A model generated the notes under the pieces. That model did no database searches. It was given only the letters and a program-made list of their open reading frames with translations, and was not told where the DNA came from. Positions 18,016-60,506 of a DNA stretch of 64,000 bases are shown here, piece after piece. Made by a program: the position numbers and the translations under genes. Location of the stretch: positions 47,039,867 through 47,103,866 of the forward strand of contig NC_057716.1 in the NCBI RefSeq assembly GCF_004010195.1, in the 5' to 3' direction. Origin of the DNA: Chiloscyllium plagiosum. Taxonomy: Eukaryota. How positions within the stretch are numbered: position 1 is the stretch's first letter; each line of letters opens with the position of its first letter.

Positions 18016-19016
18016 GTATGACGATGATTCCTGAGTGTAAGATTCTTAGCGAAGCATTGCAGTAGGCCTTTGGATAAAACTGGAATAAAAAAGTGTAAAG
18101 GAAAGAATATTTTGTAGATGACCATGTGTCTTGGTAGTTTGCTGAAGACATTAACTTCAAGATTTACAATAAATGGGCATGAATTATTCTTGAAGTCAGC
18201 TGAAGTGTGCCTGAGAAAATTACAATTGCATTTCAGTTGAAAAAGCTAAGGCACCATTACATTAATGTATATACCACATTTTGCAATAATTTTGAATGGA
18301 GGAATTAACAGTAATAATGTATTTGTAAGAATCTTTATTAAAATATTTAATTGTTTGAAAATTATTGTAGGTTGAGAATACTGTGCATTGCTATGGTGTT
18401 TAGTATAGCATCAAAGAAAATCTTATCTATTAATACTTGGACATTTTGAATGTATATCCAGTACATTGCACATTTGGACACACTTCATTTATGACTATTT
18501 TGTCACTCCTCAATTACTAACTATCACCTAACCTTCTCATAGTCAGACAGCACAGAAGAGGTCCTTTGGTATATTGAATCTGTGCCGACCTATTTGCATC
18601 ACTCAACAGGTTAGCCTTGAATGTCGTGACATTTCAAATGCTCATCCACATACTTTTTCAAGATTGTGTGGTTTCCAGCATAAATTATCCTCCTAGATAG
18701 TGCATTCCAGATCCTTACCATCCTCTGGGCGAAAAGTGTTTTCTTCAGATCTTCTCCAAAGCTTTTTGTGAAGATCTGTAGCTCACGTTATGTTTGAAGT
18801 TGTTGGTCGGTTTGCCGAACGGGTTGATTTTTTTTATTTTTGCAAACATTTTGTCTCCCTCCTGAGTGACGTCTTCAGTGCTGTGTAGCCTCTGGATGAA
18901 GTGCTGTCATTGTGATCTGCCCTGAATTTATACAGTTCTTTGCAAGGTTTGTGAAGGTTTGTAGCTCAGGTTGAGGTTTAGGTGTAGGTTTGCTCGCTGA
19001 GCTGTAGGTCTGATAT

Positions 19017-19056
19017 CCAGACATTTCTTTACCTGGCTAGGTAACATCATCAGTGG
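19017..19056 (-). ncRNA. Hammerhead ribozyme copy (family D), mutated
   Basis: Reverse complement is CCA-CUGAUGA-U-GUUACCUAGCCAGGUAAA-GAAAU-GUC-UGG, two substitutions relative to 20002-20041. Confidence 0.7.
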
Positions 19057-20001
19057 CGACTTCCAAGTGAAGTAAAGCTGTTGTCTCCTGCTTTCTATTT
19101 ATATGTTTGTCCTGGATGGGGTTCCTGGGGTTTGTGGTGATGTCATTTCCTGTTCATTTTCTGAGGGGTTGATAGATGGTATTTTGATCTATGTGTTTGT
19201 TTATGGCGTTGTGGTTGGAGTACCAGGCCTCTAGGAATTCTCTGGCATGTCTTTGCTTAGCCTGTCCCAGGATAGATGTGTGGTCCCAGTCAAATTGGTT
19301 GTTTTTTTCATCCATGTGTAGGACTATGAGGGAGAGAGGGTCATGTCTTTTTGTGGCTAGCTGGTGTTCGTGTATCCTGGTGGCTAACTTTCTTCCTGTT
19401 TGTCCTACGTAGTGTTTGTGGCAGTCCTTGCATGGAATTTTGTAGATGACCTTGGTTTTGTCTATGAGTTGTACTGGGTCTTCTAAGTTTGTTAGTTTTT
19501 GTTTGAGAGTGTTGATGGGTTTGTGTGCTACTAGGATTCCTGGCTGTCATTTCTGAGACTTCTTTGATGTATGGTAAGGTGGTTAGGGTTTCTGGCTGTG
19601 TTAGGTCTGCTTGTTGTGGTTTGTTCCTGAGGAATCTGCGGATTGTATTTTTTGAGTATCCGTTCTTCTTGAATACATCGTATAGGTGGTTCTCCTCTGT
19701 TTTCTGAAGTTCGTCTGTGCTGCAGTGTGTGGTGGCTTGTTGGAATAGTGTTCTGATACAGCTTCATTTGTGTGTGTGTGTTGGGATGGTTGCTCGTGTA
19801 GTTAAGTATTTGCCAGAGAATTTTTAGAGGCCTGGCACTCCAACCACAACGCCATAAACAAACACATAGATCTAGATACCATCTATCAACCCCTCAGAAA
19901 ACGAACAGGAAATGACATCACCACAAACCCCAGGAACCCCATCCAGGACAAATATGTAAATAAAAAGCAGGAGACAACAGCTTCGCTTCACCTGGAGGTC
20001 G

Positions 20002-20041
20002 CCACTGATGATGTTACCTAGCCAGGTAATGAAACGTCTGG
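20002..20041 (+). ncRNA. Minimal type I hammerhead ribozyme (PLE family D), intact core
   Basis: CCA-CUGAUGA-U-[GUUACCU AGCC AGGUAAU]-GAAAC-GUC-UGG: core boxes, 7-bp stem II, 3-bp stem I and palindromic ACGU stem III. Confidence 0.85.
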
Positions 20042-21159
20042 ATATCAAACCTACAGCTCAACGAGCAAACCTACACCCTTATACAGTTCTATCTGTTGTG
20101 ATGGGTTGTTCTACTTCCGGTTTTGTATTTCGTGGTCTGTAGGTGGCGTCTATTTCAATGTGTTGATTTATGGAGCCAGTGGATGAATAACAGGCCTTTG
20201 TCTTTGTTTAGCCTGTCCCAGTATCATAATGGTACCAGTTGAATTGGTGTCCTTCATTGTCAATGTGTATTGATATGAGGGAGGACTGGTCCTGTCATTA
20301 TATTGTAAACTGATGGTCTTGTATTCAGGTGGTGAGTTTCCTACCCGTTTGTCCTATGTAATGTTTCTTGCAGTTGCTGCATGCTATTTTATGTATCACA
20401 TTCATCCTGCGTGCTGTGGGAATGGGGTCTTTTGTCCTGGTTAGTAGCTGGTGAAGTGTGGCTGTTGGTTTGTGTGCTGTTATTATTCCCAGACGACATG
20501 GAAGTCTCGTTGTTAGTTCTGAGACATTTCTAATATAGAGTAGGGTGGCCAGTGTGTTGGGGAGCACAGTGTTTTCCTGTTGTTGTTTGTAAGTTAGACA
20601 TTGGCGAATGAAGCTGATAGGGTACTTTTTATTGATAAAGACTTTGCATAAGTGTTCTTTATTGCGGAGTTCTGGGGTGTTCGTGTGCTATGGTTCGTTT
20701 AAACAGGGTCTTGACACAGTGTCAGCGCTTCACCCAGAGGCAACACAGCATGGAAGATGTCACCCAGGAGTGAGCCGAAGCGTTTACAAGAAAATCAATC
20801 AACCAACAGTTTCTTCTCTAAAGTTCCTGTCTTTCACCATAAAACTATACCTCCTCATCACTGCCCCTTCAACTAAGGGGAACAACTGCTTCCTATCCAT
20901 CCTGTCCATGTCCTTCATAATCTTATCCACCTCAGTCAGGGTCCCCTAGTTTTTTGTGCAAGAAAATAATTGGAGCCCATCCAGCCTCTCTTCATAGCTA
21001 AAATATTCTGTCCTATGCAGTATCCTGATGAGTCTTCTCTGCACCCTGACTAATACAATCACTTTCTTCTTATTCTGCATCTGTTTACCACACTTATTCA
21101 ATTTTGCCACTTTTGTAAATCCTGACTTGTGAACAAGATATTCTTTAACTTCATGACAT

Positions 21160-22165: not shown

Positions 22166-23046
22166 AACTCTCAACTTGATTCAAGCTTGACTTTGGCCAA
22201 CTGAGCAGTAAACAAAAATGTGACCCACCTCTGATTCTAACTAATGAGCCAAATATCTTAATAAATGAATTGTTCTGTTATTTTTCTTTTTAGTTTGTTC
22301 CTACTTTACCATATTGTAATTCTGCAGCTGATGATCTAAATCATCTATAATATTCTGAGTGCCTTTTCTCCCTTTGCTTTATGTTCTTGTTATTTCCTTC
22401 ACGATGAGTATTATTTTCTTCCTTTTCTTGTCCATCAATTCTCTGTAGCTAATGAAAATTGTATTATGTAACATACAAACAAATATGACGTTATAAAATT
22501 TAAGATTTAATTTTCCACAATAATATTAGGAAACCTATTTAAAATTATCTTTGCAATCATTTTGTTACTCAGTCAGCCTTCTGTAAATATGAGCTATGGT
22601 TTGATATCTTTGTCTGGAATAGTCAATAATCTTAAGCGAAGATTAATCTGTGATCTGAGCACTTGTATATAGTTTCTGTAGGTGCATCAGTAGCATTTAA
22701 TTACCCAGAGCTGTCAGGATATTATTTTCTTCGGTGTCTCACTTTACTTGGATTGTGCTTGTTTTTAAACATGATATGGAAATAGAAGTAAGTGAATAAA
22801 TTTTAAAAGTTTTTTAATTTATTAAATCTTGTGTTTTTATACAAATATTTAAGCAACGGCTTACTGTATGAAGATGTAAAAATTGTAGAAGCTATCAGAT
22901 CCACTTTAAATGTTTTCAAAACTGTAGTAGCTTTTTTGCATGAATTATAAATATTTTCTTTAGAAACATACAATATAGGAGTAGGCCATTTGGCCCCATG
23001 ACCCTGCTCCGCCATTTGTTTTGATAATGGCTGATCCTCCAACTCA

Positions 23047-23180
23047 AAAGCCCTTCCAGATGAAGGGCTTTTGCCCGAAACGTCGATTTTACTGCTCCTC
23101 GGATGCTGCCTGAACTGCTGTGCTCTTCCAGCACCACTAATCCAGAATCTGGTATCCAGCATCTGCAATCATTGTTTTTA
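23047..23180 (+). mobile_element. Short PLE 3' end (family A) with mutated HHR and a tiny local inversion, inserted in a CR1 3' end
   Basis: C(A)GAUGA-A-GGGC UUUU GCCC-GAAAC-GUC at 23057-23084; 3' end ttgtttttacct; TSD cctccaactca (23036-23046 / 23181-23191). Confidence 0.85.
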
Positions 23181-26100
23181 CCTCCAACTCAGTAGCCTGT
23201 TCCTGTTTTTCCCTCATTCTTTGATCCCTCTAGTCCAAGGTGTTATGTCCAACTCTGTTTTGAAATCATACAATGTTTTAATTTTGACTGCTTTCTGGCG
23301 AATTCTGTAGGCCTCACCACTGGGTGAAGAAATTTCACCTTGTCTCAATCCTAAATGGTTGACCATGTATCCTTAGACTGTGGTCCTTGGTTCTGTATTT
23401 CTCTGCCATCAGGGATATCTTTTCTGCATCTACCCTTTCTGGTCCGGTTAGAATTTTATAGGTTGCTAAGAAATCCACTCTCATTCTTCTGAACTCCAGC
23501 AAACATAATCCTAACAGTCTCAACCACTCCTCACATGTCAGTCCTGCCATCCCAGGAAGCAGTCTGGTAAAGCTTTGTTGCACTCCTGCTATAGAAAGAA
23601 CATCCATCCTTAGATAAGGAGACCAAAACTGCACACATTATTCCAGGTGTGGTCTCAGAAGACCTTGTATAATTGCAGCAAGACATCCCTGCTCCTGTGC
23701 TCGAATCTTCTTGCTATGAAGGCCAACATACCAATTTGCTGCCTTGATGATCTACTTACCATCAACAACTGGTGTATGAGGACCCCCAGGTCTAATTGCA
23801 TATTATTCGCTTTGAACTTACCTGCCGCCTTGCTTTTTCCCCAAAGTGGATAACTTCACATTCATCCACATTATGCTGCATCTGCCATGCGTTTGTCCAC
23901 TCACTCAGCTTGCCCAAATTACATTGAAGTGTCTCTGTACCTTCCTCAAATATCACCCTCACACATAGATCTGTATTATTTGCAGATCTAAAACAGTAAA
24001 ATTGAACAGAGAATACTTCAGAACAGTACAGGCCGTTCAGTCCTCGATGTTGTGCTGACCTTTTATCCTACTCTAAGATGAAACTAATCTACACATCCAA
24101 CATGTGCCTATCCAAGAGTCACTTAGATGTCCTTAATGTATCTGACTCTACTACCACTGCTGGCAGTGCATTCCACGCATCCACCACTCTGTGTAAAGAA
24201 CTTACCTGTGACATTTCCCCTAAACCTTCATCCAATCAGCTTAAAATTATGCCCCTTCATGATAGCCATTTCTGCCCTGGAAAGAACTGTCTGGCTATCC
24301 ACTCCATCTATGCCTCTCATCATCTTGTACACCTCTATCAAGTCACTTCGCATCCTTCTTTGCACTAGTGAGAAAAGCCCTAGCTCCTTCAACCTTTCTT
24401 CATAAGGCATGCCCTCCAGTCCAGGCAGCATCCTGGTAAATCTCCTCTGCACCCTCTCGAAACCTTCCACATCCTTCCTATAATGAGGCAACCAGAAGTG
24501 GACACAATATTCCAAGTGTGGTCTAAACAGAGCTTTGCAGAACTGCAGCATAACCTAGCGGCTTTAAACTCAATCCCCCTGCTAATGAAAACCAATACAC
24601 CATATGCCGCCCTAACAACCCTATCAACTTGGGTGGCAACTTTGAGGGATCTACGGGCATGGACATGTTCTTCCATACTGCCAAGAATCCTGCCTTTAAC
24701 CCTATATTCTGCATTCAAATTCGACCTTCCAAAATGAATTACTTCACACTTTTCCAGGTTGAACTCCATCTGCCACTTCTCAGCCCAACTCTGCATCCTG
24801 TTAATATCCCGTTGCAACCTACCGCAGCCCTCTATACTACCCACAACAACACCAACCTTCGTGTCATCAGCAAACTTACTAACCCACCGTTCCACTTCCT
24901 CACCAAGTCATTTATAAAAATCACAAGGAGAAATATATATTGTGTAAATCTGGGGTCCCTGCTCTGATCCATGCAGTACCCCAATAGTCAATGCCTACCA
25001 TTTGGAGAAAGACCCATTCACTTCCTACCTGCCAACCTGCTTTCTATCCATCTCAAAATACTACCCCAATTCCATGTGTTCTAATTTTACCCACTAACAT
25101 CTTATTTGTCCATACCCTTCTGTAAATCCAAATAAGCCACGTTCACTCATTCCTCCACCTTAACTTTACGAATTACCATCCTCAAAATTACAGCAGATTT
25201 GTCAAGCTTGATTTCCCTTCTCTAAAGCCATGTCTGTCTGATTCTGTCATTGTCTTCCAAGTGCTCAGCTGTTAAATCTTAACTTTTTCCTCACCCTGAT
25301 GTCAAGCTGGTCTCTTTGTGTCCCTTTTCAAATTTAGAGATTACATTAGCTACCCTCCAGTCTGTAAGAACTGGTTCAGAACTTTAGAATCTTGGAAGAT
25401 GACCACCAATGCATCCACTAGTTCTTGGTCCACTTCCTTAAGTTTTCTGATTATTGAGTCATGAGGTTTCACTCTCCTTCAATCCTATCAATCTCCCCCA
25501 ATAGCATTTCTGTATTTATACTGGTAACCTTCCTTTCAGTGAACCATATATTGCTCAACATTTCTGCTATGTTATTTGTGTCCTCATTTGTAAGCACCAA
25601 ACAAAGATATGCATTTAGTTGGTCAGTAATTTCTTTGTTCCTCATTATAAGCTTTCTTGTTCCTGACTGGATGGGATCTACTTTTGTCTTCTTCATTTTC
25701 CTCTTCATATCTATACAGAAGGTTTTAGTCAGTTTTTTTGTTGTTTCCTACAAGCTTACTCTATTTTTTTTCTTTCTTAATCAATCCTTTTGTCCTCCTT
25801 TGCTGAATTCTAACTGCTCCCACCCCTCGGGTCTGTTGCTTCTTTCTGGCCAATTTGTATGCCTCTTCCTTGGATATAATGCTATCTCTAATTTCCTTTG
25901 TAAGCCATTAGTATGGCCACCTTTTCCATTTACTTTTGCACCAGACAATGTCCCCCAGTGTCATGCCTCCTTTCGCGTCATGTAATCTTCTCTATTTGGA
26001 TCCAGGATCCTAGTCTCAATCAGCTATGCCACTCTCCACTTTAAAGAGGAATTCTATCATACGATGGTTGTTCATCCCCAAGGGGTCCCATGTGACTTGA

Positions 26101-26285
26101 TTGGCAAATATACCTTTCTAATTACATGATACCTCGTCTGGGATGGCCAGTTCTCTAATTGGTTCCTCAACGCATTGGTCCAGAAAACCATCCCGTGTAC
26201 ACTCCAGAAATTCCGCCTTGATGGTATTGTTGTGAATTTGATTTGCTAAATCAATATGCAGATTAAAGCCACCTATAATTACAGA

Positions 26286-26466
26286 CATGATTCGGAGATG
26301 CCGGTGTTAGACTGGGGTGTACAAAGTTAAAAATCACACAACACCCGGTTATAGTCCAGTAGGTTTAATTGGAAACACACTAGCTTTCGGAGATACGCTC
26401 CGAAAGCTAGTGTGCTTCCAATTAAACCTGTTGGACTATAACCTGGTGTTGTGTGATTTTTAACTT
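26286..26466 (-). mobile_element. Short fold-back PLE insertion (family C)
   Basis: Arms 26324-26392 and 26398-26466; unpaired tail 26286-26323; TSD tataattacaga (26274-26285 / 26467-26478). Same sequence as the 3' end of the element at 49734-50653. Confidence 0.88.
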
Positions 26467-26829
26467 TATAATTACAGATGTTTCTTTATTTCAGTTTGGG
26501 GAGAGGAATCTGTCCAACCCCCCACTATTATTTCTTTTCCCTTGGAGTTTCTTAGTTCTGCTCATACAGATTCAACAACATCAGAACTAATATCCTTCCT
26601 CACTATTGAGTTAATTTCCTCCTTAACCAGCAATGTAACTCTACTGCCTTCTCATTTTTGTCTGTCATTACCAAATACTGAACATCTCTGGATATTTAGT
26701 TCCCATCCTTTATCACGCTGCATCCATGCCTCTGTAATCATAACCTGTTTGATCCTGGCCTTTGATTTCTCTGCCTATCACTTTTCGTGTTATAATTCTG
26801 AATTTTATTCTTTCCTCTTACTCCTTGCA

Positions 26830-27780
26830 GTGTATATTTACAATAAGTTGTAATGACTTGGAAGAAGGAAGGGAATGTACTGTAGCCAAATTTGCAGATG
26901 ACACAAAAATAGATGGAAAGCCAAGTGGTGAGAGGGATGCAAATGGTTTAGAGAGATAGTGACATTTAAGGCAGCAAAAAGTTGGAAAATGGACTGTAAT
27001 GAAGGAAAATGTGAAGTTGTTCATTTTGGAAGGAAGAACAAAAGAACAGTATCATTTAAATGGAGAGAAGCTGCAGATAGCTGAACGCAAAGGGATTTGG
27101 GCATGCTTGTGCATGAAACACAAAGTTAGCAGACAGGTGCAGCAGGTAATCAGGAAGGCCAATGGAATGCTGGCCTTCATTTCAAGGAGATTGGAGTATA
27201 ACAGCAGGGAAGTCTTACTGCAACAAGTTAAGATGCTGATGACACCACATCTAGAGTACTGTGAGTTTTGGGCTCCTTTTTAAGGAAAGATATTTAATTG
27301 GACACCATTCTGAGAAAGTTCACTAGAATTATCTCTGGTATAGTGGGATAATCGGTTGAGACTCCACTGATTGGAATGTAGAAAAATGGGGGGTGATCTC
27401 ATTGAAATATATAGGATTCTAAGGGGTTTGACAAGATAAACGCTGAAATGATGTTTCCCCTCATGAGAGAGTCTAGGACCAGAGGGCATAGCCTTAGAAA
27501 AAAAGGGGTACCAAATTAAGACTGAGATCAGAATTTTCTTCTGAGGGTTGAGTGTCTTTCGAACTTCTTGCCACAAGAGCTATGGGGACAGAATCCTTGT
27601 TTATTTGAAGGCTGAGTTAGATTCTTGATTACTAGAGGAATTAAGGGTTATATGGAAAGGCAGGAAATTGGGCATGAGTGTTGGATTAGCCATGATCCTT
27701 TTGCATGGTGGAGCAGACTTGAGGGGCCAAAAGGCCTACTCCTGTTTCTATTCCTTATGGTAATATGATCTTATGTGTAG
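26830..27780 (+). mobile_element. CR1 LINE 3' part
   Basis: AKFADDTKI and KANGMLAFISR...PHLEYC motifs; 3' tail. Confidence 0.9.
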
Positions 27781-30679
27781 GTTTCTGTCCCTCTGCTATT
27801 TTAGTTTAAAGGTTCCTCAACCACTCCAGCAAATGCTCCCCATTGGACATCAGTCCTTCATTGCATTAGGCAATATTTACCTTGTTGAAGTTGAAGGTAA
27901 ACTTAAGTAAGTTGAAATGAAATCTATTTATATGAATTAGTCTTTCCATTCTGAAAAAGATCTTGTAAGGGTAATCTTCTGTTGAGGAAAATATTTCCTC
28001 CTGGCCCGGGAATCCCTTGGGCTCTGAGGAGTACACACATCTTACACAGAGGTGTGGACAAGTTAAGTGAGTCTGAGACTAATGATAATATTCCCTGTCC
28101 TTCATATTCTCCTTTTGTGTTGCATTCCTCATTCAGCTTCCCATACCTCCATTTCTGTGTTTCTGTTCATCCACTTCAAGTTAATTTTCTCAATTTGCTC
28201 TTAAGCCCGAGGCTTGGTGATTTGTCATGCCCTTGTTGAACATGTAATCTCATGTGAGGCCAGAGTGATGGTGATTTGTGAGAATCCCCCGTCTTGCAGC
28301 TTCCTGACCCCTCAAGTTTCACAAACCCTACTGTTCGATCATGAATTGCTCCCTTTCACTACAGTCGTTCCCTCAGCAACCCAAACCAGTTAATCTCATG
28401 CCCAAATTTGAGCTGCTTGATTTCTGCTGGATTCTTGACCCCAAATGTTCAAACTCCCAGGACTGAATGTGGCTCACTCCGTGGGCTAACTTCACAGAAC
28501 ATCCCAACCCTCAGACGTTTGGCCCCACATGCTTGACATATTCAACACCCAACTAACGTATTGGACCTGATCCTGAGAAGCTTATCGTACCTGATCCCGA
28601 GATGCAAGCAGTGAGTTTTTGCTGTGAGGAACTCCTCCTGACTACCATGACAGAAATAGGGACCACCTAGTTTTTTAGTGAATGAGGGGAGGTATGTAGA
28701 AATGAGGTGAGATTAGCTAATAACGAGATGCAAATGCATGGACTTATGGTAGTCATCGCAGATTAGTGAGATTCACAACTTTGCTTTGACCTTCAGGAGA
28801 AAATTAGAAATTTTTTTGATGTTGGGGGTCTGATTTTTTAAATTCTTAGTGAAATTTCTTGATGTTATTGCTGTTATCCACATCGCTCAAGCAGTGGAAA
28901 ATTCCACCTCTTATCTCTCTAAGAATACAGTATTTTAGTTGAAAGCTGAAGTTTTTAAAATGAAGATTGTAAATTGGATAATAAATTTGAATATATTTTA
29001 AGTTGGAAATTTAAATAAAAGCCCTTCAATTTAATTTAATTGGCTGAACTGAAATTAATATTTTCTTCAGTTTTGCTGCAATGCTAGAAGACAAATCTCT
29101 ATTTTTTCTCTCTTAAGGAAAAATCTTGCTTCATCTAAACCCATCATATACCCCCTTCTGCATAGCACTGTTAAAAGCTGGTACACTTTTTAAATATCCT
29201 CAACTGTAAGAATTATGAGTGATGCAAAATAATTATATTTAAGTATAGTAACGGTGGCTACTCAGTTGCCATTGTGTGAATAATAGATTTTCAGAATTGA
29301 AAAGACAGCGCTAATAGTTTATTTTAATACTGCGGATTAAGAACCATATTTTATTTATTTTGGTACCAATGTATTTTGTAAGATGTACTGAATTAACCTT
29401 GAGGTAGATTGGATTAATTCCTGCAGGAATGCAATAATTGATGTAAAAGGCATTTTGTGAAAAGCTATTACTGGGGTAATGTGGTATAATTCATGTCAAC
29501 TAGATTTTAAATGTAGATTTTTGGTGATTTGGTTCAATTAATTACATTTTAGGTAGCATTTCACTGACAAATTGTATGATTTTTCCCAACACGTTTCTGA
29601 ATCCTTCTGCACTATTTTTGCTATCAGTGTACAGTTTCAACCCTCTAGTCCATTCCCCAAATAGTCAGTATTCATGTATGAGCCTCATTATTGAGTTTTG
29701 GCTCATTATTTGTTTGCAAAAGGTACCATTGTGACTCCTGATTCTATCCTCACTCATTGTCTACATAGATAACTATTAAAGCTGATTTCTGTATTGTTTC
29801 TTCAATGGTTTTTTTTTGCCAAAGTAATGGAAATCTTGTGTGTGATGATGCCATTAGCAGATCCATAGCAATAAATGATAATTACGTAAAGTGTGTTAAC
29901 ATAGGTTTCTATGACATGCTCAGGTATGCTTTGTAGAACAGTGAATTTTTAGTCCAACCAGAAGTCATAAATTTAAACAAAAACTAGGGGGACATGGGAA
30001 ATTTTCTGAATTATTAAGATCAGAGACATTATCTGAAAAGCTAGTAGAAGCTGATTTCAGAAATAAGTTTAATAGCTGGTTGTACAGGTAGTTGAGGATG
30101 AGGGTCCTATAAGGTTATGGACAAAAAACAGGGATGTGGGTCTAAGCACAATAGCTCTTTCAAAGAGCCTTTGCAGGCACAATGGGCCTTTTGTGTATCT
30201 TTCTCTCCCTTTTAAAGGAAAAGCTATTGCTGGATTTAGTTTTAGAAAATGAAGTTGGAAGAGAAGATAATATACAGGCAAGTAATTCAGAAAATAATGA
30301 CAATGCTGCAATTAGGTTCAAAATAAAACTCAAAAGTGGAATGAATAGGTAATTTTTGTTTTAAAAATGGATCAAGAGCTGACCCCCAATGAAAGAAAAA
30401 ATGAAAATTAAAGCAAAATTTGCACAAGCAAATATAAAAATAATCAAGAAATTCAGCATTATGCAGGTGATAGTAGCCTCCTTGATCAGGACCCTGCTGC
30501 TATTTTAAATGCTCACTTCTTTTACCACTGGCTGCAGTGTGCACAATCTAAATAATGCGCAGCAGAAACTTGCAAAGCCTCCTGCTGTACCATCTACTAA
30601 TATACTTATATGGTGACTTATAATGCTTAGAAGGACAAAACATCGCAAGTCTTGGTAACATTGCCACTGTCAAATCTTT

Positions 30680-30831
30680 CTGGAATAGTGGTGCTGGAAA
30701 AGCACAGCAGTTCAGGCAGTATCCGAGGAGCAGATTTTACTGCTCCTCGGATGCTGCCTGAACTGCTGTGCTTTTCCAGCACCACTAGTCCAGAATCTGG
30801 TTTCCAGCATCTGTAGTCATTGTTTTTACCT
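30680..30831 (+). mobile_element. Short fold-back PLE insertion (family A)
   Basis: Arm 30680-30733 is inverted against 30740-30793; tail 30794-30831; TSD actgtcaaatcttt (30666-30679 / 30832-30845). Confidence 0.9.
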
Positions 30832-31579
30832 ACTGTCAAATCTTTAACAATATTAACTTGTAGATATAGTGCAGTTCCTTCATTGTTGCTGGGTCAAATT
30901 CCTGGAATGCAGAATAAAAGTACCGTCACATCACAAACTGCAGCAATTCAAAAAGGCAGTGCATCATTACCTTCTGACAACCAGTTAAAGACCACGAAAT
31001 GCTGACATTGCCAGTAATGTTTGCAGCAAATAAATTAATCACAAGACTAGTCGGATGACTGATTGAACGTATGGTCACTCTTTTCTGAAATCAAAAAGGA
31101 GCAGATTGGATCCCATGTTTTACGAAAGCATTGCAGTAACGCTTAACCTTTATACCCTTTTTTAAGTTGTGTATGCATTTTCCACATTTTTGAGGAAATG
31201 TACCATATTAAACCAGAATAGTGTTGTAAAACATGCAGCAATGCTCTTGCTTCTTCTGGCTTTACGTCAAGTAATTTTGATTTTAATTACTCGGGTTGTT
31301 CTTGGCGAACTCCATTGATGCCTTTCTAGGTTAGGCTGGAGGAGACCTGGTTCATGTTTAGCACCTCTGGACTGACCATTTTCCAGTGGGGGACCTTAAA
31401 CAAGTATTGGCTCCCACATCAGAATATTAAGAAGCTTTGAGTGTTTCAGACAATGCATCCTATGAATGAATGAATAAAAAAAAAAACAGATTATAAATGA
31501 ACAATATTAAAAAAAAATTGCAAGTTCTGAACCATAGCTCCCACCTACTATAAAAGTTAAATGAAATAGAAGAGATATG

Positions 31580-32420
31580 TAGGCAACTTTCAAAGAACTG
31601 TAAAAGGGAACAGGGTAGTGCAGGATTTCAACTTGTCCAATATTTACTGGGGTAGTCATTGTGTAAAAGGTTTAGAGAGAGCAGAATTCTTAATTTGCAT
31701 CAGGAGAGTTTTTAAAGCCACAGAAAGGTGCCAGAAAATTGGAGGACAGCTGTCTGATATTTTGTTGAAGGAAGACCAGTCAGTCTAACCTCTGTGGTGG
31801 GGGAACTGTTAAAAGCAATTCTGAGGGGCAGAATTAATCAGCACTTGGAGATGGAGGGATTAATCAAGAACAGTCAGCATGGTTTTGTTAAGGGGAGGTT
31901 ATGTCTGATCAACTTGATTAAAAAAAAAATTTTAAAGAGGTAGCCAGTTGCATCGATGAGAGCAATGCATTCAACATAGTCTACTTGGACTTCAGCAAGG
32001 CTTTTGCTAAGGTAAGAGCCCTTGGGGATTCAAAGAAATTTAGCAAATTGAATCCAGAATTGGCTATGTGGCAGGGTGATGGTTGAGGGTTTTTTTTTTA
32101 CTTTTGTATTCAGTGAAGTTTCACAGGGATCCGTGTTGGAGTCCTTGCTGTTTGTGGTACATATAAATGATTTAGACTTGAATGTAGGAGGGCTGTGGAT
32201 AATTTGTGGATGATGTGAAAATTTAGTGTAGGGTAAATAATGAAGAGGAATAGTCTTAGACTATAGGAGGATATAAGTGGGCTGATCAGTGGTGAATGGA
32301 ATTCAGTCCAGATAAGTATGAGGTGATGCTCTTGTGTAGGGCAAACAAAACAAGGGAATACACAACAAATGGCCGTATCCTGGGAAGCATCGAGGATCGG
32401 CGGGACCTTGCTGTGCATAT
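31580..32420 (+). mobile_element. CR1 RT fragments
   Basis: agtcagcatggttttgtta and ttggacttcagcaaggctttt (DFSKAF); ORF 32296. Confidence 0.8.
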
Positions 32421-38341: not shown

Positions 38342-38351
38342 AAGATGGCGG
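38342..38351 (+). promoter_or_regulatory. YY1-type motif at the L1 5' end (internal promoter)
   Basis: aagatggcgg lies 11 nt inside the element start, the position typical of vertebrate L1 5' UTRs. Confidence 0.55.
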
Positions 38352-42996: not shown

Positions 42997-43075
42997 GAGA
43001 GTTTCTGTAATCTTTTGTATTGGTTTGATCAACTTCAGATAAATCACATTGACAAAAGCTGAAATTTAATGCTTA

Positions 43076-46629: not shown

Positions 46630-49600
46630 GTTTCAAATCAGTACTTGGGGTCCAGCTGCTCACATTATGCATCAATGATTTGGATATGGAGATAAAGTAT
46701 AATATTTCTGAATTTGTGGAAGTTAAAAAGCTAAGTGGAAATGTATGTTTTGAGGATGATGTAAAGCAGCTTCAGAGGGCAGCATGGTGACACAGTGGTT
46801 AGCACTGCTGTCTCTGTGCTAGAGACCCGGTTCAATTCCCGCCTCAGGCAACTGTCTGTGTGGAGTTTGCACATTCTCCCCGTGTCTGCGTGGGTTTCCT
46901 CTGGGTGCTCTGGTTTCCTCCTACAGTCCAAAGATGTGCAAGTTAAGCCATGCTAAATTGCCCGTAGTGTTAGGTGAAAGGGTAAATGTAGGGGAATGGG
47001 TCTGGTTGGGGTGGACTTGTTGGGTCAAAGGGCCTGTTTCCACATTGTAAGTAATCTAATCTAGTATTGGGCAGGTGCAGTGGGTGGGCAAGAACATGAC
47101 AAATAAAATGTATAGGAAAATGAGAAGTTATCTGCATTGGAAGAAGGAACAGATATGTCGAGTGTTCCTTAAATTTAAAAGGTTGGAAAGACTGTAGATG
47201 TACAAAAGACATCTAGGTGCCGTTGTTGATTAATCACTGAAGGATAAGATGCAGTTGCTGCAAGTTACTCGGAAGTCTCATGGAATGACAGCTTTTATTG
47301 CAAGAGGATTTCAGTACAGGAGTAGTGAAATGTTGCTTCAATTGTAAAGGTGCTTGGTTGGACCACACATAGAGGAATGTAACCTCCGAAAGATTACTAT
47401 TGTCAGAGAGAGAGTGCAATGAAGGTTCTTCAGATTTGATCTCAGGATGATGGGACTGTCCTCTGAAGAAAGGTTGGGCAAACTGGGCCTGTAGTCTCGA
47501 GGGTTTTGAGGAATGAGAAGTGATCTCAGTTAAATTCACAAAATGTCTAAATAAATAGGCACAATAAATGCAGGTAAGACATTTCCTCTAGTTGTAGTGC
47601 CCAGAACCAAGGGGCACAATTTAAAAATAAGGTGAGGACTACTTAGGATCGAGACGAGGAGTATCTTTTACTCAGGTGGTTGTAGGTGTTTGGAATTCTC
47701 TATCACAAAGGCCTGTGGAAGCTCAGTCTTTCGAGTATGCTTAAGGTAGAAATTGATAGATAAGGAAAGAAAAATATTGCTCGAGTACTAGGAACCCTGT
47801 GTGTCGGAGGAATATTCATGATTGGCTGAGGAAAAGAAGGGAGATATCAAGGGCTAAAGACAAAGACTTGGATGAGTATAGAAAATACATGGGAGGAAAC
47901 TAGGAGAGTGTAGAGGGGGCATAAATATACATTTCTGGGTAAAATAAAGGAAAATTGGAAGGTACTTTGAGTAGATTTGGGGAAAGAGGTAAACAGGGAA
48001 AGAGCAGGGATGATTAGGGACCAAAATGGGAATCTGTGCGTGAAAGCAGAAGATGTAGGTGATGTTTTGAATGAGCGCTCGCATTTGTATTCGCAAGTGC
48101 AAAAGTAGATGTGGAAATTAGGGAAGGAGGCTGTGATAAACTTGAATAAATTGGCTTTGGGAGGAAGGTATTAATAACCGTTTTAGTGGGTGAAAATTCC
48201 CCAGATTTGTATGTTATCTATCTCAGGCTTCTCTGGGAGGCAAGGAAGATGATTACATGGGGCCTGAAGTAATTTTCAAATCATCTCTGACTGCAGAGGA
48301 CTGTAAAGTAACTATTGTTGTATCGTTATTCCATAAGCTGTTGGGGATAAGTCGGGGCCAGTGAGCCCAACATAAGAAGTTGGGAAACTTTTGGCAAAAA
48401 CATTCTGACAGACAAGCGAGGCAAGGATTAATCAAGGATAGTCAGCATGATTTTGTCAGGCACATATCATGTCTAACAAATTTAATTGAATTTTCTGAGG
48501 AGATGACTAGATGCGTGGATGAGGGTGGTGCAGTTGATGTATGGCTTACTCTTTAGTAAGGCCTTTGACAAGGTCCTGTATGGGAGACTGGTCAAAAAGG
48601 TAAAAGCCCAGGAATTTGACAAATTGTGTCCAAAATTGACTTAGTGGCTGGAGACACAAGGGAATAATCAAAAGTTGTTTCAGTGACTGGAAGACTTGTC
48701 TAGTGTTGTACCCCCAAGGTTTAATGCTGGCTTCCCTGCTGTTTGTAGTGTACTTTAAATATCTTGACACAAATACAGGAGACTTGATGAGTAAATTTGA
48801 CAGTATGTTAAGTATTGAGGAGGAAAGCCTTAGGCTAGAAGATGATGCTGATGTGCTAGTCAGAAAGATGCTTGGAGTTTAACCCTGAGAAGTGAGGGAT
48901 GATATGTTTTGGGAGGACTAACAAGAAAAGAGGTACGTAATGAATGGTAGAGCATTAGGATGTACAGAGTATCAGAGTGACCTTGATATGCATGTGCAGA
49001 GATCTCTGAAGGCAACAGGCAGGTTATTGCATAGTTCAGGCATATGGGATATCTGCATTTATCAATTGAAGCACTAAGTACAAGAGCAAGAAGATTGTGA
49101 TGGAGCTATATGAAATGTTAGTTAGGTCACAGCAAGAAAATTGTGTAGTTCTGACTATTGCATGAAAAGGAAGCACATGATTGCACTTGAGAAGGTGTAG
49201 AGAAGATGCTTCAGGATGTTGCCCGGGCTGGAACATTTCACCTAAAGAGAGGCTGAGGTTAATTGCCTTGGAGCAGAGAAGGCTGAGAGTGTACAAAATC
49301 ATGAGTGGCATAGATGGTTTAGATATGAAGAAGCTTTCCCCCTTGATGAAATGTTATTACTGAGGGCTTAGATTTAGGTAAGAGGCACAGGTTTAGAGGG
49401 GATTTAAAGGATCCAGTGTGTCATGGACATGTGGAACTTATTGCCTGAAAGGATGATAGAACTGGGAATCATCATAACATTCAAGTCGCATTTGGATGTA
49501 CACTTTGAAACATCACACCCACAATACTGAGCTAAGTGCTGTGAAATGGAATTAAAGTAGATAAATGTTTGATAACCAGTGTTAACATGATGTAGAAAAA

Positions 49601-49630: not shown

Positions 49631-49733
49631 TATGATGTACATGAATGGTAAACCTAGTTCCATGTGCAGAATTCTCTTTGCATCCAAAACTATGTGGTAG
49701 AAGATGGTGTAAGTGACAGCAAGCACTGACGAC

Positions 49734-50653
49734 AGACAGGAGTGTTCGCTCCCAGTTGGGGAACACTTCAGCGGTCCAGGACATTCGACCTCGGACCTTC
49801 GGGTGACCATCCTTCAAGGTGGACTTGCATCAGTGAAAAGTGGCCGAGCAGAGGCTGATAGCTAAGTTACATACCCATAGGGAGGGCCTCAACCGGGACC
49901 TTGGGTTCATGTCACACTACAGGTGACCACCATTACACTATATACACACACACAGACGCTCATACACACCCTTACAGACAGACACACACACACTCTCACA
50001 GGCATCCTCTCAGAGACTTAGACTGCTCTACACTCATGCACACACACATACACTCTTTCTCACAGACACTCACAACCCCCCACCCCAGACACACAATACA
50101 CTCAACCCCCAACCCAGACAGACACACATACACACCCACATGCACACACATATTCTGTGGGGTGAATTTATACTTAACAGAGTTACATTGTATTTTGGTC
50201 AAAAACTGCACAAATTCATGTAAAACTCTGTTATCTCACTTTTTAGATTAGAATCAATCTAAACACCATAGCACAGACAGAGAACACGGGGGCTAACACT
50301 TTCAATATATCGTCTAGCTAGCACCAATTGTTACAGTTAACCTGAGAATGCAGCTTTTTAAAAAAAAAGGTTTTGTGATTTACACATGAAAGAAATGAAA
50401 CTATCATGGTATTCGAACAGATGAAAGACTCAACAGACAGTAAAGGTATTTTTCGATGTATAATTTCAGTTACATCACATGGTAAATTTTTGCTATAAAT
50501 TCTGTGCCTTACAATTGTCCTCCACAACCACCTGATGAAGGAGCGTCACTCCGAAAGCTAGTGTGCTTCCAATTAAACCTGTTGGACGATAACCTGGTGT
50601 TGTGATTTTTAACTTTGCACACTCCAGTCCAACACCGGCATCTCCAAATAATG
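49734..50653 (+). mobile_element. 5'-truncated Penelope-like element (family C): GIY-YIG C-terminus, CA-rich 3' UTR and HHR
   Basis: Translates RQECSLPVGEHFSGPGHSTSDLRVTILQGGL...KVAEQRLIAKLHTHREGLNRDLGFMSHYR* (stop 49924-49926). Probable TSD actgacgac (49725-49733) / actgacaac (50654-50662). Confidence 0.88.
50529..50563 (+). ncRNA. Minimal hammerhead ribozyme (family C), intact core
   Basis: CAC-CUGAUGA-A-[GGAG CGUCA CUCC]-GAAAG-CUA-GUG, with palindromic AGCU stem III and 3-bp stem I. Confidence 0.8.
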
Positions 50654-50884
50654 ACTGACAACCAGTGTATACTTGCACAGTATTCTGGGATATTGTGCTT
50701 TGTTCCTAATACACATGATAATCTGACTGGAGAGCTCTGATAATTCTGTTGACCATTTGAAGTCAACAAAGAGATCCTGCAGGAGGTATTCAACAGAAGA
50801 TTGGAAAGCAAATCAAAAGGTTTGCAGAGTTTCTTTCACACTGAATTATATTAGTTACCATGTAGATTTTATATATATAAATTT

Positions 50885-51014
50885 GCAAGATATAAATAGA
50901 AAGCAGGAGACAACCGTTTCGCTTCACTTGGAGGTCGCCACTGATGATGTTACCTAGCCAGGTAATGAAACGTCTGGATATCAAACCTACAGCTCAGCGA
51001 GCAAACCTACACCC
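50885..51014 (+). mobile_element. Short PLE insertion (family D): 5-7 nt of primary tail plus 125-nt inverted arm
   Basis: TSD tatatataaattt (50872-50884 / 51015-51027). ttgcaag matches the terminus at 18940, and the arm ends at ctacaccc exactly as at 20078. Confidence 0.88.
50938..50977 (+). ncRNA. Minimal hammerhead ribozyme (family D), intact, identical to 20002-20041
   Basis: ccactgatgatgttacctagccaggtaatgaaacgtctgg. Confidence 0.85.
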
Positions 51015-51304
51015 TATATATAAATTTAAAAACCCTTTTCCAAGTCACTTATCACATTGCAGGAATCCAACAAGATAGGCATCGGTTTATTCTGTGGTAG
51101 TTTATGCTTGTCAAATATAGTTAATCCAAGAAAGACTTTACAGAAAATAAAGACTGTCGTACAAAATAGTTAGCAAAAACTCCACCCTTGTGTTGGCACT
51201 GTGTTGACTCAGTTATTCAGGTTTGGAGAAAGGAAACAAGTCCTCAGGACTTTATTCAACTTTATTTGAACCAACATCCCATTATCAAACCTCAGCTTAT
51301 ACAA

Positions 51305-54300
51305 AGAACATAAAAACATAGGAGTAAGCCATTTGGCTATGAAGCCTGCCTGGTAGTTAGTAATATCATGGCCGATTTGCCCCAGGCTTTAACTCCTCCT
51401 TTACGCTAGCTTCTCATAGCCTGAACTTCCTGAGATTTCAAAAATGTATCTTACCACCTCTTTAAATACATTCATTGATTTAGCCTCCACAACTCTGGGA
51501 TAGAATATTCCAGCCATTCACTACTCTCTGCAAGAAGTACTTTTTACATATGTCAGTTTTAAATGAGTATTCCCTTATTCGGTAACTATGACCCACTGTT
51601 AGAGTTCATTACAAGTGAAAACATTCTTTTAACATCTAACCGGTCAAGCCCCTTCAGAATCTTATGTCTTAGTAAGATCACCGCTCATTCTTCTAAACTC
51701 TAATGCTTAATCATCTAATTTGTTTAGCCATTCTTGATGAGTCTACCTCATCATCAAAAGAATCAGTCTGAATCCAATGCCACTATATCCTTCCTTAAAT
51801 TCAGGGACCAAAATTCTACACAGTACTCCGGGTGCAGTCTCATCAGTACCCTGTAGTGACATATTTAATTTTAAGTTTCACCCCCTAACACTACATGTTA
51901 GAAGTCAGACGACACCAGGTTATAATCCAACAGGTTCATTCGAAATCGCAAGCTTTGGAATGCTGTTTCTTTGTCAGGTGAAGGAGCAGTTCTCTGAAAA
52001 CTTGGGGTTTCAAATAAAACTGTTGGACTATAACCTAGTGTCTTGTGACTTCTAGCCTTGTTCACCCTAGTCCAACACCGGCACCTCCACATTATCCCTA
52101 ACAATAAAGGCCAAAATTGCATTTGCCTTAATTATGTGCTATACCTGCATGCTAACTTTTGTGTTTAGTGCATAAGAAGACCCAGAATGCTCTGTTCATT
52201 GTTGATTTTTTTTTTTCCCCTCCACATCTCACTTTCCTACATTAAACTCCATTTGCCAGGTTTGTGCTCAGCCGTTCAACCTATCTATACCTTACAGATT
52301 CTTTTTTCCTCATAACAGTATACCGTCCCACCTATTTTTCTATCCTTAGCAAATGTGTAGATTTTATACTCTACCTTCCTCGAAATCGATAATATAGACA
52401 GTAAATAATCGAGGCCCTAGCACTGATCTTTGTGGCATTCCACTAGATACACCTTTACGACCTGAAAAAGAGCTTTTAATCCTGACTCTTGTCTTCAATG
52501 TATTAAACAATTTCAATTTATACTAATACATTACCCCCAATACGACGAGCTCCTATCTTGTGCAAAGCTTTTTGTATGGCGCCTTATTGAATGCCATCCA
52601 GAAATCCAAATACATGACATTTACAGATTTTAGCTTTATCAATTCTGCATATTATATCCTCAGAGTTCTCACAAATTTGATAAATTTGCTTTTCACAAGC
52701 CACGTTGACTCTGTTTGAGTTAATTTCTTCTAAATGTGCTGCTATTTCTTAATAATCAACTCGAGCAGTTTTATAACAACAGATGTTAGGCTAATTGGCC
52801 CATGGCTTACAGTTTTCTATATCCTTTCCTTCTTGAGCAGGTGTCTGTCATTTCTCCAATTGGTGAGAACCCTGTAGTATATTATGATCAATGCCTCCAC
52901 TGTCTCTATAGCCACTTCCTTTAAATTTGCTGGATGCAGGTCATCAGGTGTTGGTGACGTATCTACCTTTCATTCCATTCATCAAATATTTTTGTCCCTT
53001 AAGATAGATACTGTTATATGATCTTTCCTCCATGAGCACCTTGCTTATCTATTATCTTTGGGATTTAGTGTCCTCCACTGTAAAGACCAATAAAAAATAT
53101 TGTTATAAGTTATTTGACATTTCCCTGCACAGTTATTATTTTCCCAGTTGCATCCTCTGAGTTCCACATTTACTTTAGCTACTCTCTTTTTATATACTCA
53201 TAGAAGTTCTTGCTGTTTGTTTTTATATTTATTGCTTTTTTTTACTTTCATGATCACTTCTTTCCCCCCTCTTAGCTTATTCATTCATCTGCTGGTTTCT
53301 AAAATGGAAAATAATTTGGTGGCCTACCATTAGTTTTCGCTTCTTCACAATTATTAGTTTTTGATCAGATACTCTCCTTCAAGCCTTAGGTAACCAAGTG
53401 ATTCATCCTTTATTTTGCCTGGAATACATTCTTGTGAACATTATGAACTATCTGCTTCAATGTCTGCCACTGCTCATCCACTAACTATCCACTTGGTCTC
53501 ATTCCCAGCCTGCTTTGGACAATTTTTGGACATACGTCTGTAATTGCCCTTATTTAAGTTGAGGATACTGCTTTAAGACCTAGTTTCTGTCCCTCAAACT
53601 GAATTTAAAGTTCCATCATGTTTGATTGCCACCCTCTAGAGGATCGTTAATCTAGTAATGTGTAGATTCATTACACATTACTAAATCTATAGCAGCTGAT
53701 CTAAAATAGGTAGGTTGAGTATCATACTGCTCCAAGAAGTAATCCCTGGCTGCATTCTACAATTCATCTTCCACGTTATTCTTGTCCATCTGATTTGACC
53801 AGTCAATATACAGATTAAAACCATGCATAACAATTGTAGTACCCTTATGTGTCTCCATTATTTCTCAATTTATACCTTGCCCTATAGGGAGACAGCTCTT
53901 TGTGGTCCTATTGATGATTTCCACCCATGACTTCTTGCCCCCGATTACTTAGTTCCATTTTTGTGGCATCTATATCACTACTCACTACTGTACTGAAACC
54001 TTCCTTTATTAATACTACTACCCACCTCCTTTTCCTTTATTACCAATTTTTCCACAGCGTCAAATATCCTTGAATGTTGAATTTTAGTGTTGGTCTCCCT
54101 AAATGCATGTCTTTACAATAGTATCAAGTCATATTCATTTTATTTGTGTCATCAAGTCCTCTACCTTCTTAAAAATGCAGTGTGCATTCAGATAGAGAGC
54201 CTTTAGCCTTGACTTCTATTATTTCTGATTTCTGCTACACTACTGTGTGTATTCTCTGCCCCTTCTTGTCACACATTGATTATTGTTCATATCTTGACAA

Positions 54301-57109: not shown

Positions 57110-57250
57110 GTTGGTAAAAATTAAAGAATGGGTAGACAAGCATGACCCAAGAGCAATGGTCATACCTTTCAGTGGAGCACTTGAACTAAAGTTACAGGAA
57201 ATGGGTGAAGAAGAAATGAAGAAATACCTGGAAGAAAACAAAACACAAAG
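57110..57250 (+). CDS. OLA1: OLA1 (Obg-like ATPase 1) internal coding exon, 141 bp
   Basis: Pyrimidine tract plus acceptor tgtgtacag|G and donor AAG|gttaat. Translates (W)[46 protein letters not shown](S), recognisable as vertebrate OLA1. Phase matches the next exon. Confidence 0.95.
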
Positions 57251-58280: not shown

Positions 58281-59059
58281 TACTTTACAGAAGTATTGGG
58301 CATTTTGTTTTCTTGGTGCTTGTTAGAGGAGTACACAGTTGAACTTGTTTGTTTGGTCTGGAAACTTTGTATATAAAGCAGAGGTATACGTAATTTGTTA
58401 TAGACATTCCTAACCAATCTCTGTTCAGAGCTGATATTCTGGAACAGGTGAGACTTCATCCAGGCCTCCTGGTCCAGAGGCAGAGATAATGCCATTTGTA
58501 TCACTGAATTAGTTTGCTTTTTTTTTTAAAAAGTGATTTTCTTTTAAGTTCATAGAGTTCAGATGAATTGGATGTGGTTCTAAGCCATTCATGCTCTTAT
58601 TTATGGGCTCGCTCCTTGTAAATAAGTTGTTGTTGACTCATTCCCCTCCTAAGCGGATCCATTTTCTGCTCTTAAGAAGTGTTTAGGCATTCGGAAATAA
58701 GAGATAAGTTGTATTCAGTAAGTTTTCAATGATGGGGTCAAATTGTTTGGTATTCCCTTGTTTGGTCATTCTACCTTTGTACATCTTTTCTTCCCACTTC
58801 CTCAACGCATATAATCCTACTCTTCTAAGAAGCCGTACAGAAGCTATTTCTTAAATTATGAAATATTGAACTGAAAACTGAAGTCAACTTTCATCACGAG
58901 AAGCTTCTACATGTTGTTTGCGTCTTCACTATTTTAAAATGAAATATTTCTTGCAACAATGATATTTGGTGAATTCGGAGCAGCAGAAGTCTGCTACACC
59001 TCCTCAAAAAGTAGTAATGTGCCTCATCAAATTGTGGTAATAATGGTGCAGACTTGTAA

Positions 59060-60263
59060 TTGAGTTTGATTTATTGTTGTCACATGTACCAAGTACAGGT
59101 TTGCATGCATCAGGGTAGCTGAACAGAGTGCTGAACACAATGTTATAGCTGTAGAGAGAGTGTGATCAGAATTAACATTTTGAGAGTTCTGTTCAAAAAT
59201 CTGATAACAGCAGGGAAGAAACTGCTCTTGAATATGTTTGAACATGTATTCAAACTTCTGTATCTTCTGCCTGATAGAAGAAGGTGGAAGAGAGTTTAAC
59301 CAGAGTGGAAGTGAACTTTGATTATTTTGGTTGCTTTCCTAAGGCAGTGGGAAGCATAGATGGAGCCAGTAGATTGAAGGCTGGTTTGTGTGATGAACTG
59401 GGTCAAGTTCACGGCTGTCAGTAGTTCCTTGTAGTGTTGGGAAGAGCATAGAAAGCTTTCTATGGTGCATCTATAAAAATTGGTAAGAGTCCTTGTCAAC
59501 AAGCTGAATTTCCTTAGCCTCCTGAAGAAGTAGAGACGTTGTGCTTTCTTGACTGTCATGTTGATATGGTGGATCAGGATAGATTGTTGGTGATCATCAC
59601 TCCCAGGAACTTGACAGTCTCAACCATCTCCACCTTCGCCATTTTTGCAGAAAGCGGCGTACCCTCCACTCCACTTCCTGAAGTCAATGACCACTCCTTT
59701 GTTTTGCATGCTGCTAAGCACTAAATCTCTTTCCTGTATTCTGTGGCATTGTAGGTCGGATCTCAAACAAGAATAGTGATGTCGTCAGCAAGCTTGTAAA
59801 CGGAGTTGGGGTGGTATGTGGCTATACAGTTGTGAGGGAATAACAAGTATAGTAGGGGGCTGAGTATATAGCCTTGCAGGGCACTGGTGCAAAGGAGGTG
59901 TTGTCGCCTATTCTTACTGATTGTGGTCTATGGGTCAGGTAGTCGAGGATCCAGTTACAGAAGGGAAGCCGAGACTTAGGTCTCAGAGTTTAGAGATGAG
60001 TTTGTTTGGAATTTAGGTGTTGAAGGCAGTGCTGCACTCAATAAGTGAAGACTGACATAGGTATCCTTGTTACCCAGATGTGCCAGAGATGAGTGTAGGC
60101 TTGGGGAGATGTTGTCTACTGTGGACCTGTTGCTCCAATTGGCAAGTTGCAAAGAATCGAGACAATTTCGTAGGCTGGAATTGATGTGAGCCATCTCTAA
60201 CCTCTCGAAGGACCTCATAATTATGAAGGTCAGAGCCACTAGGTGATAGTCATTGAAGCACAA
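59060..60263 (-). mobile_element. Rex1/Babar-type LINE fragment (RT and 3' end)
   Basis: ORFs read CFNDYHLVALTFIIMRSFERL...DSLQLANWSNRSTVDNIS...NKDTYV and VKKAQRLYFFRRLRKF...LTNFYRCTIES. Confidence 0.85.
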
Positions 60264-60489
60264 GGTGTGATTTTTCTTTTTCTAACTAAGGCAGTGTTGA
60301 AGTGTGCATTTCTGTTGGTATAACCCATATGATATATAGTTGTACTATGCATTGCTCAAGCTCATATTAATTTTATTAAATCTTATTTGTGTTGGTACCC
60401 GATTCAGTTCTTATTTAGAAATATTGTGTAAGCCTGCAATTATATTTCTTATCACCAAGTGATTGGTAGTTGATGATCAGGTTAGAGAT

Positions 60490-60506
60490 TCGCAAGGTTT
60501 GTGAAT
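60490..60506 (-). mobile_element. 17-nt PLE (family D) terminal micro-insertion
   Basis: tcgcaaggtttgtgaat matches ttgcaaggtttgtgaag at 18940 and is flanked by the direct repeat gttagagat (60481-60489 / 60507-60515). Confidence 0.7.

Follow-up and report, generated by a model that had tools for sequence, protein, structure and literature searches.

The 64,000-nucleotide (nt) stretch of the Chiloscyllium plagiosum genome analysed here (NCBI RefSeq assembly GCF_004010195.1, contig NC_057716.1, forward-strand positions 47,039,867 to 47,103,866; hereafter the window, numbered from its first letter) contains 11 insertions of Penelope-like elements (PLEs), and BLAST searches with one copy per family, together with a self-BLAST of the window, revealed none beyond these. 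The inserts are designated by family letter (A to E) and copy. Eight of them are head-to-head pairs of arms whose 3' ends face outward, and one arm of each pair bears a 3' extension, the tail, that the other arm lacks. The other three, A1 (23047), the long C copy, and D3 (60490), comprise the tail end only; the description of all inserts as fold-backs in an earlier note on this DNA is therefore valid for the eight two-armed units. Below, the terminus of the tail is referred to as the outer end, and the position at which the tail-less arm stops as the inner end.

Family E is represented by an old, Poseidon-type insert (18762-20811) with the tail arm on the minus strand and a short plus-strand arm at 20715-20811; it lies within a 12-bp target site duplication (TSD; 18750-18761 / 20812-20823, one mismatch) and is interrupted by the two-armed insert D1 (18940-20078; tail, 18940-18980). 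The D1 tail arm extends to 19812 and includes a remnant of the reverse transcriptase (RT) thumb and the GIY-YIG domain, the tail-less arm occupies 19811-20078, and the TSD is 12 bp long (18928-18939 / 20079-20090). D1 landed in the pseudo-long terminal repeat (pLTR) region of this older related element, approx. 165 nt from the E outer end. A1 (23047-23180, plus strand; 11-bp TSD, 23036-23046 / 23181-23191) is a 5'-truncated, tail-bearing copy with a 10-nt inverted piece of hammerhead stem II at its 5' junction. In C1 (26286-26466; 12-bp TSD, 26274-26285 / 26467-26478), the tail (26286-26323) is on the minus strand, and the arms meet at the stem II palindrome (approx. 26389-26401). A2 (30680-30831; 14-bp TSD, 30666-30679 / 30832-30845) is composed of a tail-less arm at 30680-30733 and a tail arm at 30733-30831. 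The two-armed family B inserts are B1 (34097-34274; tail, 34097-34131; 13-bp TSD, 34084-34096 / 34275-34287) and B2 (36483-37116; 14-bp TSD, 36469-36482 / 37117-37130), the latter with a tail-less arm at 36483-36785, a tail arm at 36786-37073, and a tail at 37074-37116. The long C copy (about 49734-50653, plus strand) carries the end of the GIY-YIG domain, the 3' region, a hammerhead core, and the tail, but no inverted arm; its weak TSD (49725-49733 / 50654-50662) is 9 bp long with one mismatch. D2 (50885-51014; 13-bp TSD, 50872-50884 / 51015-51027) joins an inverted tail-end piece to a tail-less arm, and the two-armed C2 (51894-52095; 11-bp TSD with one mismatch, 51883-51893 / 52096-52106) belongs to a diverged subfamily. 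D3 (60490-60506, minus strand) is a tail end of 17 nt within a 9-bp TSD (60481-60489 / 60507-60515).

Direct repeats of 9-14 bp thus flank all 11 insertions (10 clear, one weak), as previously claimed, and their lengths are 9, 9, 11, 11, 12, 12, 12, 13, 13, 14, and 14 bp. When boundaries were set by homology (±4 nt) and scores were compared with those of 2000 random pairs, the TSD score was matched by at most 0.3% of random pairs for 10 of the 11 inserts and by 1.75% for the long C copy; in a looser search, a score of at least 9 was reached in 4 of 300 random pairs. Mismatches across ten TSDs amount to 2 of 121 positions. A 13-bp repeat at 49570, 150 nt further left, is a possible rival TSD of the long C copy but was set aside because homology begins near 49734. 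The duplications enclose the whole two-armed unit, which argues against the inverted arms having arisen by rearrangement after insertion or by faulty assembly. Assembly of inverted repeats is difficult (PMC8557442), and no contig among those listed in a survey of DNA contigs spans an entire insert; however, the arms differ from each other by 2-20%, independent D inserts share the position of the inner end to the base, and at A2 and B1 the flank continues into the element in contigs from two species labels (22-28 letters on the element side, below the 31-letter threshold). Such an origin is hence very improbable. The flanks in the second-species contigs that enter A2 and B1 diverge by 3-4%, which suggests that these are shared, older insertions.

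Alignment of the arms gives tails of 40-41 nt in D (18940), 37-38 nt in C (26286), 36-38 nt in A (30831), 35 nt (34097) and 43 nt (37116) in B, and about 37-41 nt in C2 (52095), the ranges resulting from 1-3 nt common to tail and TSD. These values reproduce the near-constant 35-43 nt reported in the earlier note for six measurable inserts; the A1 inversion, left uncounted there, lies off the fixed site. The tail-less arms of both D inserts terminate, as had also been noted, at the same base (CTACACCC; 20078 and 51014). The three D outer ends agree to within 1-2 nt shared with the TSD, and those of B1 and B2 lie 6-7 nt apart. In E, the inner end is not measurable, the arms being 20% diverged with gaps. 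The distance from the ribozyme to the inner end varies from 40 to 62 nt, while the tail stays at 35-43 nt across three lineages. Moreover, every insert has an outer end, which in eight inserts is opposed by an inner end (its position uncertain in E); two outer or two inner ends were found in none of the eight two-armed inserts, an outcome with a probability of 0.004 under an independent 50:50 choice.

The inserts belong to three lineages rather than the approximately five families first proposed, as A and B are 83% identical, C and C2 are 76% identical, and the D and E tails are 80% identical. The tails of A/B, C/C2, and D/E align with each other no better than shuffled sequences, with one borderline pair (B37-E, p 0.04) among 26 cross-lineage pairs; the earlier view that the tails of C and D are unrelated to those of A/B is thus retained. 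The D remnant matches proteins with RT and GIY-YIG domains at 40-88% and GIY-YIG itself with an E value of 6e-4, below the Pfam cut-off, and tblastn shows homology to RT/GIY-YIG proteins for C and for E, which also retains RT-thumb and GIY-YIG remnants. A published criterion for the Penelope/Poseidon clade is the absence of a CX2-5CxxC linker before GIY-YIG together with two Cys residues in the motif (PMC8557442). The D remnant and its homologs P0001, P0003, P0006, and P0012 lack the linker and have two Cys inside the GIY-YIG motif, and D/E are assigned to this clade on the basis of sequence. Homologs of family C (75-86% identity) carry the linker upstream of GIY-YIG (P0038, CX4CxxC; P0040); the C copy in the window is truncated below the linker, so that its typing as Neptune/Nematis depends on these homologs. 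A/B are represented by 3' non-coding ends devoid of usable coding remnants, and their status as PLEs follows from the hammerhead core and the insertion architecture. The closest named relatives of the retroelement remnants in the window come from carpet sharks. At its C-terminus, the predicted zebra shark protein P0001 continues through a D-like pLTR, and the similarity fades close to where the D inner end would lie. Predicted shark host proteins P0005, P0018, P0034, and P0039 contain PLE GIY-YIG fragments, which are likely exonised or mis-annotated copies.

Families A, B, C, and D contain minimal hammerhead ribozyme cores (seven strict matches with stem II and one relaxed match), and the core scan recognised none in E or C2; the claim that all of the families bear hammerheads thus applies to the former four. 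In D1, a core lies in the tail arm (19020-19053, minus strand) with a mirror core at 20005-20038 (plus strand); further cores were located in the tail-less arm of B1 (34184-34211), in both arms of B2, in the long C copy (50532-50560), and in D2 (50941-50974). A search against Rfam returned 0 matches. Cervera and de la Pena (2014, PMC4209133) defined the minimal ribozyme of metazoan PLEs; as in the shark, these hammerheads combine a conserved core with a long stem II and a palindromic minimal stem III, and opposite-strand pairs 100-700 bp apart had already been noted. The A2 tail arm begins (30733) at the predicted hammerhead cleavage site. Ribozyme-cut RNA was considered as the template and rejected, as this single case is within chance for so many ends.

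All units are short remnants that lack a full open reading frame (ORF), a direct pLTR, or an RT core. The inserts display the features of canonical endonuclease-positive (EN+) PLEs, i.e., RT and GIY-YIG homology, hammerheads, 5' truncation, an inverted copy, a tail, and a TSD. They are best understood as truncated EN+ PLE insertions generated by priming at two sites on opposite target strands, an interpretation that we consider probable. Priming on opposite strands is suggested by the geometry (3' ends outward, TSD around the unit) and by published biochemistry: the Poseidon protein of a lizard cleaves both strands and extends them, two internal RT starts bound the tail, and a dimer is predicted, the steps between priming and the final inverted insertion being described as unvalidated (PMC11167929). 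It is further supported by the combination of one outer and one inner end in all eight two-armed inserts and by the tail-less arms of B1 and D2, which contain sequence absent from the tail arm. The earlier note had likewise proposed two primings on opposite strands, and this part of its model agrees with the geometry, the biochemistry, the end pairing, and the arm lengths; its placement of one site at the RNA 3' end is not supported (see below).

The arm lengths bear directly on an alternative in which a single cDNA or antisense RNA folds at a palindrome and serves as its own template, after which the endonuclease would resolve the hairpin at a fixed offset and leave the tail on one arm. In B1, the tail-less arm (95 nt) exceeds the tail arm body (49 nt), and the surplus is the ribozyme region; in D2, a tail-less arm of 125 nt faces a tail piece of 5-7 nt and contains sequence missing from it. 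The tail-less arm of B2 is probably also longer (303 versus 288 nt), its extra 15 nt lacking a second copy for confirmation. A folded, target-primed cDNA must be the longer one and keep the tail, and a simple fold-back is therefore excluded for two, probably three, of the eight. The tail arm is longer in D1, C1, A2, C2, and E, which is compatible with either mechanism. Self-priming might be expected from the stem II palindrome at the C1 junction, from the 10-nt inversion of A1, which resembles a true fold-back, and from variant letters common to both arms of an insert; in contrast, the A2, B1, B2, and D1 junctions share as little as 1-2 nt, and the tail is delimited in vitro by the start sites of RT (PMC11167929). 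Hence, fold-back is unlikely as the general mechanism, although A1 and C1 indicate that fold-back or variable-site priming also occurs. The outer-inner pairing and the longer tail-less arms are the features that discriminate two-site priming from self-priming.

A second alternative involves the same chemistry with a different number of templates: two RNAs, or two copies of the pLTR-tail on a tandem transcript, each serving a single priming event by one of two dimer halves that hold RNA differently. The arms overlap in seven of the eight two-armed inserts (those of D2 do not), which would require a site on one RNA to be copied twice. Moreover, a dimer is predicted (PMC11167929), and the divergence between arms (2.4-20%) exceeds that of the TSDs. 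However, TSD mismatches are under-counted owing to the way in which TSDs are called, and five inserts have arms that diverge by 2-6%, similar to the 3-4% separating the flanks of the two species labels, so that age can account for the arm divergence; the comparison of arm with TSD divergence does not discriminate one template from two. The arms of B1, B2, and C2 represent the same variant within each insert: in B, all four columns that split the four arms two against two sort by locus, and eight columns join the C2 arms against C. We judge two templates as improbable as fold-back and, on balance, place two-site priming on one RNA ahead of both variants.

In the mechanism that we favour, both target strands would be nicked, and each nick would prime RT at a different fixed RNA site, one coinciding with the outer tail end, the other 35-43 nt upstream. 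Staggered nicks 9-14 bp apart would leave two 3'-OH ends, and one ribonucleoprotein (RNP), likely a dimer on one RNA, would use both sites, so that the product always combines an outer with an inner end. Synthesis of the two cDNAs would terminate at no fixed position, frequently close to the ribozyme, and 1-4 complementary nt would join them; overlapping arms would require either displacement of one cDNA by the other or use of a second RNA belonging to the same variant. Failure of the second priming would yield a tail-only copy (3 of 11).

Both starts are likely to be situated inside a read-through RNA and not at its 3' end. Both are internal in vitro (PMC11167929), the B outer ends differ by 6-7 nt, and family C is polyadenylated upstream of both ends; together, these observations make it likely that the outer start does not represent the RNA 3' end. 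In one raw-read RNA run, selected by species label, family C reads become poly(A) after 26438 (367 reads) and 26441 (469 reads), i.e., 12-15 nt past an ATTAAA hexamer, before a GU-rich stretch, and approx. 25-29 nt upstream of the inner end. The poly(A) cassette spans 26421-26441 (plus strand; ATTAAA, 26421-26426), and the hexamer is also present in other C copies (50572 and 52013). A small number of loci, or host transcripts terminating within PLE copies, could be the source of these reads, and none of the inserts carries poly(A). In D, the pLTR and tail form an open frame of 37 codons that starts at an ATG in the ribozyme core and ends at +111, resembling the lizard element in this respect.

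The spacing between the two starts is likely set by a protein bound to an RNA helix with its 3' strand in the tail. The longest perfect helix spanning the inner end measures 7-10 bp and fits the position in seven of nine tail arms, with all three lineages represented; its 3' strand starts 9-12 nt past the inner end and stops 18-25 nt before the outer end. Folding of the whole 3' unit gives z-scores from -0.17 to -2.03. The family C poly(A) cassette is located directly after the 5' strand of this tail-closing helix. As a tentative extension, one asymmetric RNP might make every two-armed insert: a dimer would nick a loosely symmetric target, and a sequence-independent tail helix would act as a ruler that keeps the two RT sites at a spacing of approx. 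38 nt along a single read-through RNA, both in Poseidon-type and in Neptune-type elements. Polyadenylation of family C after the 5' strand of the helix would then remove both starts and split the mRNA from the insertion template. This fuller scheme is possible but doubtful as a whole.

Several points weigh against these interpretations. The number of inserts is small (11, from a single window). With respect to the helix, C1 and E do not fit its position, its length is weakly significant per arm (p 0.005-0.36), ensemble pairing across the inner end is significant in one of nine arms, and no compensatory change was found among three C sequences. The D open frame also appears in 7.7% of shuffles, and in a weak search no protein starting with this frame was matched. 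At the A1 5' junction, the inverted stem II piece forms an 11-bp hairpin (23047-23072) far from the inner site, and the D1 arms resemble D2 at least as closely as they resemble one another. As to copies elsewhere, the contig survey lists 24 of about 9,830 loose-end rows and is not a histogram; contigs exit family C at 26464-26467 in rows that mix tail-bearing and tail-less copies; and no empty sites were seen in the survey, the listed second-species contigs stopping short of C1.

Copies of these families are very abundant in DNA contigs. At least about 240,000-260,000 contigs per run were aligned on 25900-34400, a count to which an unrelated short repeat near 33.2 kb contributes. Among the rows listed, family B outer ends exit into unrelated flanks at 34095-34097, with at least 1018, 1129, and 981 contigs in run X1, at least 801 in X5, and at least 1209 and 1030 in X13. 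The contig exits support a sharp outer end and are compatible with a sharp inner end. A pattern scan of viral contigs for further copies yielded 0 matches, and that of metagenomes gave 17 matches to family A/B queries, all of them due to chance and at most 26 nt long. The joints 30705-30758 and 34157-34203 are represented by single contigs of high word depth with shorter A/B fold-back junctions, which may represent amplified fold-back subfamilies or an artefact of depth. Another abundant A/B-type subfamily, from outside the window, is marked by loose ends at 34132 and 30785; in it, an A-like body is joined to a B-like tail.

The closest experimental counterpart is PAc, the Poseidon element of Anolis carolinensis (Frangieh et al. 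2024, PMC11167929), which belongs to the same clade as D/E. It shares with the shark elements a pLTR hammerhead that overlaps the ORF start, a tail between two RT starts, and cutting and extension of both strands; the D outer end is 108-111 nt from the ATGs of the ribozyme core, close to the corresponding +111-118 of PAc. By eye, the printed PAc RNA contains a perfect 7-bp helix (approx. +50-56 / +94-100) whose position with respect to the outer end matches that in the shark tails. In its available text, that study leaves the inverted arm and TSD unexplained, describes no difference in start site between strands, and leaves the later steps open. In the shark, the same spacing is also found in the putatively Neptune/Nematis-type C and in the unassigned A/B. 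Since the tail and its link to two RT starts are already in print (PMC11167929), the novelty is lower than the earlier note held.

The shark inserts likewise resemble the unit known from Adineta Pen2a, Pen2, and Pen3a (PMC3846280) and described in PMC8557442, with an inverted 5'-truncated copy, a 30-40 bp tail at one end that falls within the first ORF codons, and a TSD of 8-10 bp. In particular, PMC3846280 proposes self-priming for units with an inverted pLTR, 8-10 bp TSDs, an empty site, and a 31-bp tail restricted to one arm, whereas PMC8557442 treats a tail of 30-40 bp as common to PLEs in general and attributes it to hairpin processing by the endonuclease; these papers thus favoured self-priming or resolution by the endonuclease. 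A 34-37 bp repeat has been described in D. virilis (PMC2377424). Compared with the canonical unit, TSDs in the shark are longer (9-14 bp), tails reach 43 nt, and only short remnants are present. Our findings are thus mostly a confirmation, in a new host, of the known EN+ PLE insertion unit in new shark families. The literature search found no account of PLE insertion structure in sharks, of the pairing of start site with strand, or of a poly(A) site in the pLTR, a weak negative given that subscription papers, including the PLE papers from 2004-2006, fell outside it. If the fuller scheme with a helix ruler is true, the very large number of shark copies would allow each step to be tested by counting, and the helix, the poly(A) site, and the target motif provide leads for the existing in vitro system.

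In twin priming of L1 elements, both nicked strands prime cDNA, resulting in a head-to-head inversion within one TSD; the annealing site of the second primer varies, and there is little overlap between the arms. D2, with its non-overlapping arms, and A1 resemble such products. In contrast, the second site of the shark PLEs is fixed, the arms overlap in all but one of the two-armed inserts, and there is no poly(A) tail.

Regarding the target, the published preference for nicking at 5'-ATT-3' is not evident, as ATT begins 1 of 20 reconstructed nick contexts. GGC lies approx. 14-17 nt outside B outer ends in five of six DNA rows (majority letters, among the rows listed), and the GCC predicted from this was found at two of seven A/B/C outer ends in the window (p 0.005). 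GC at 14-16 nt from the junction occurs at 7 of 14 A/B/C ends versus 0 of 8 D/E ends (p 0.0004, for a range chosen after looking). A symmetric preference for GC(C) 14-16 nt from each junction is thus possible for families A/B/C, as a weak motif that is absent in D/E.

The inserts likely sit in introns of a homolog of OLA1/GTP-binding protein 9, an exon of which was identified at 57111-57248 (plus strand; E 2.8e-17 to 2ohf_A); a Pfam search of the E, C, and host-exon fragments gave no match. The window also contains a GC-richer long stretch (38346-40500 and beyond) with ORF1- and RT-like sequence, which by eye we take to be LINE-like, and a separate short interspersed repeat in three copies that are 76-79% alike (33207-33539, 46776-47058, and 60543-60889). 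A 217-bp element at 43067-43283, unrelated to the PLE families, has 41-bp inverted ends (88%) and is possibly a small DNA transposon.

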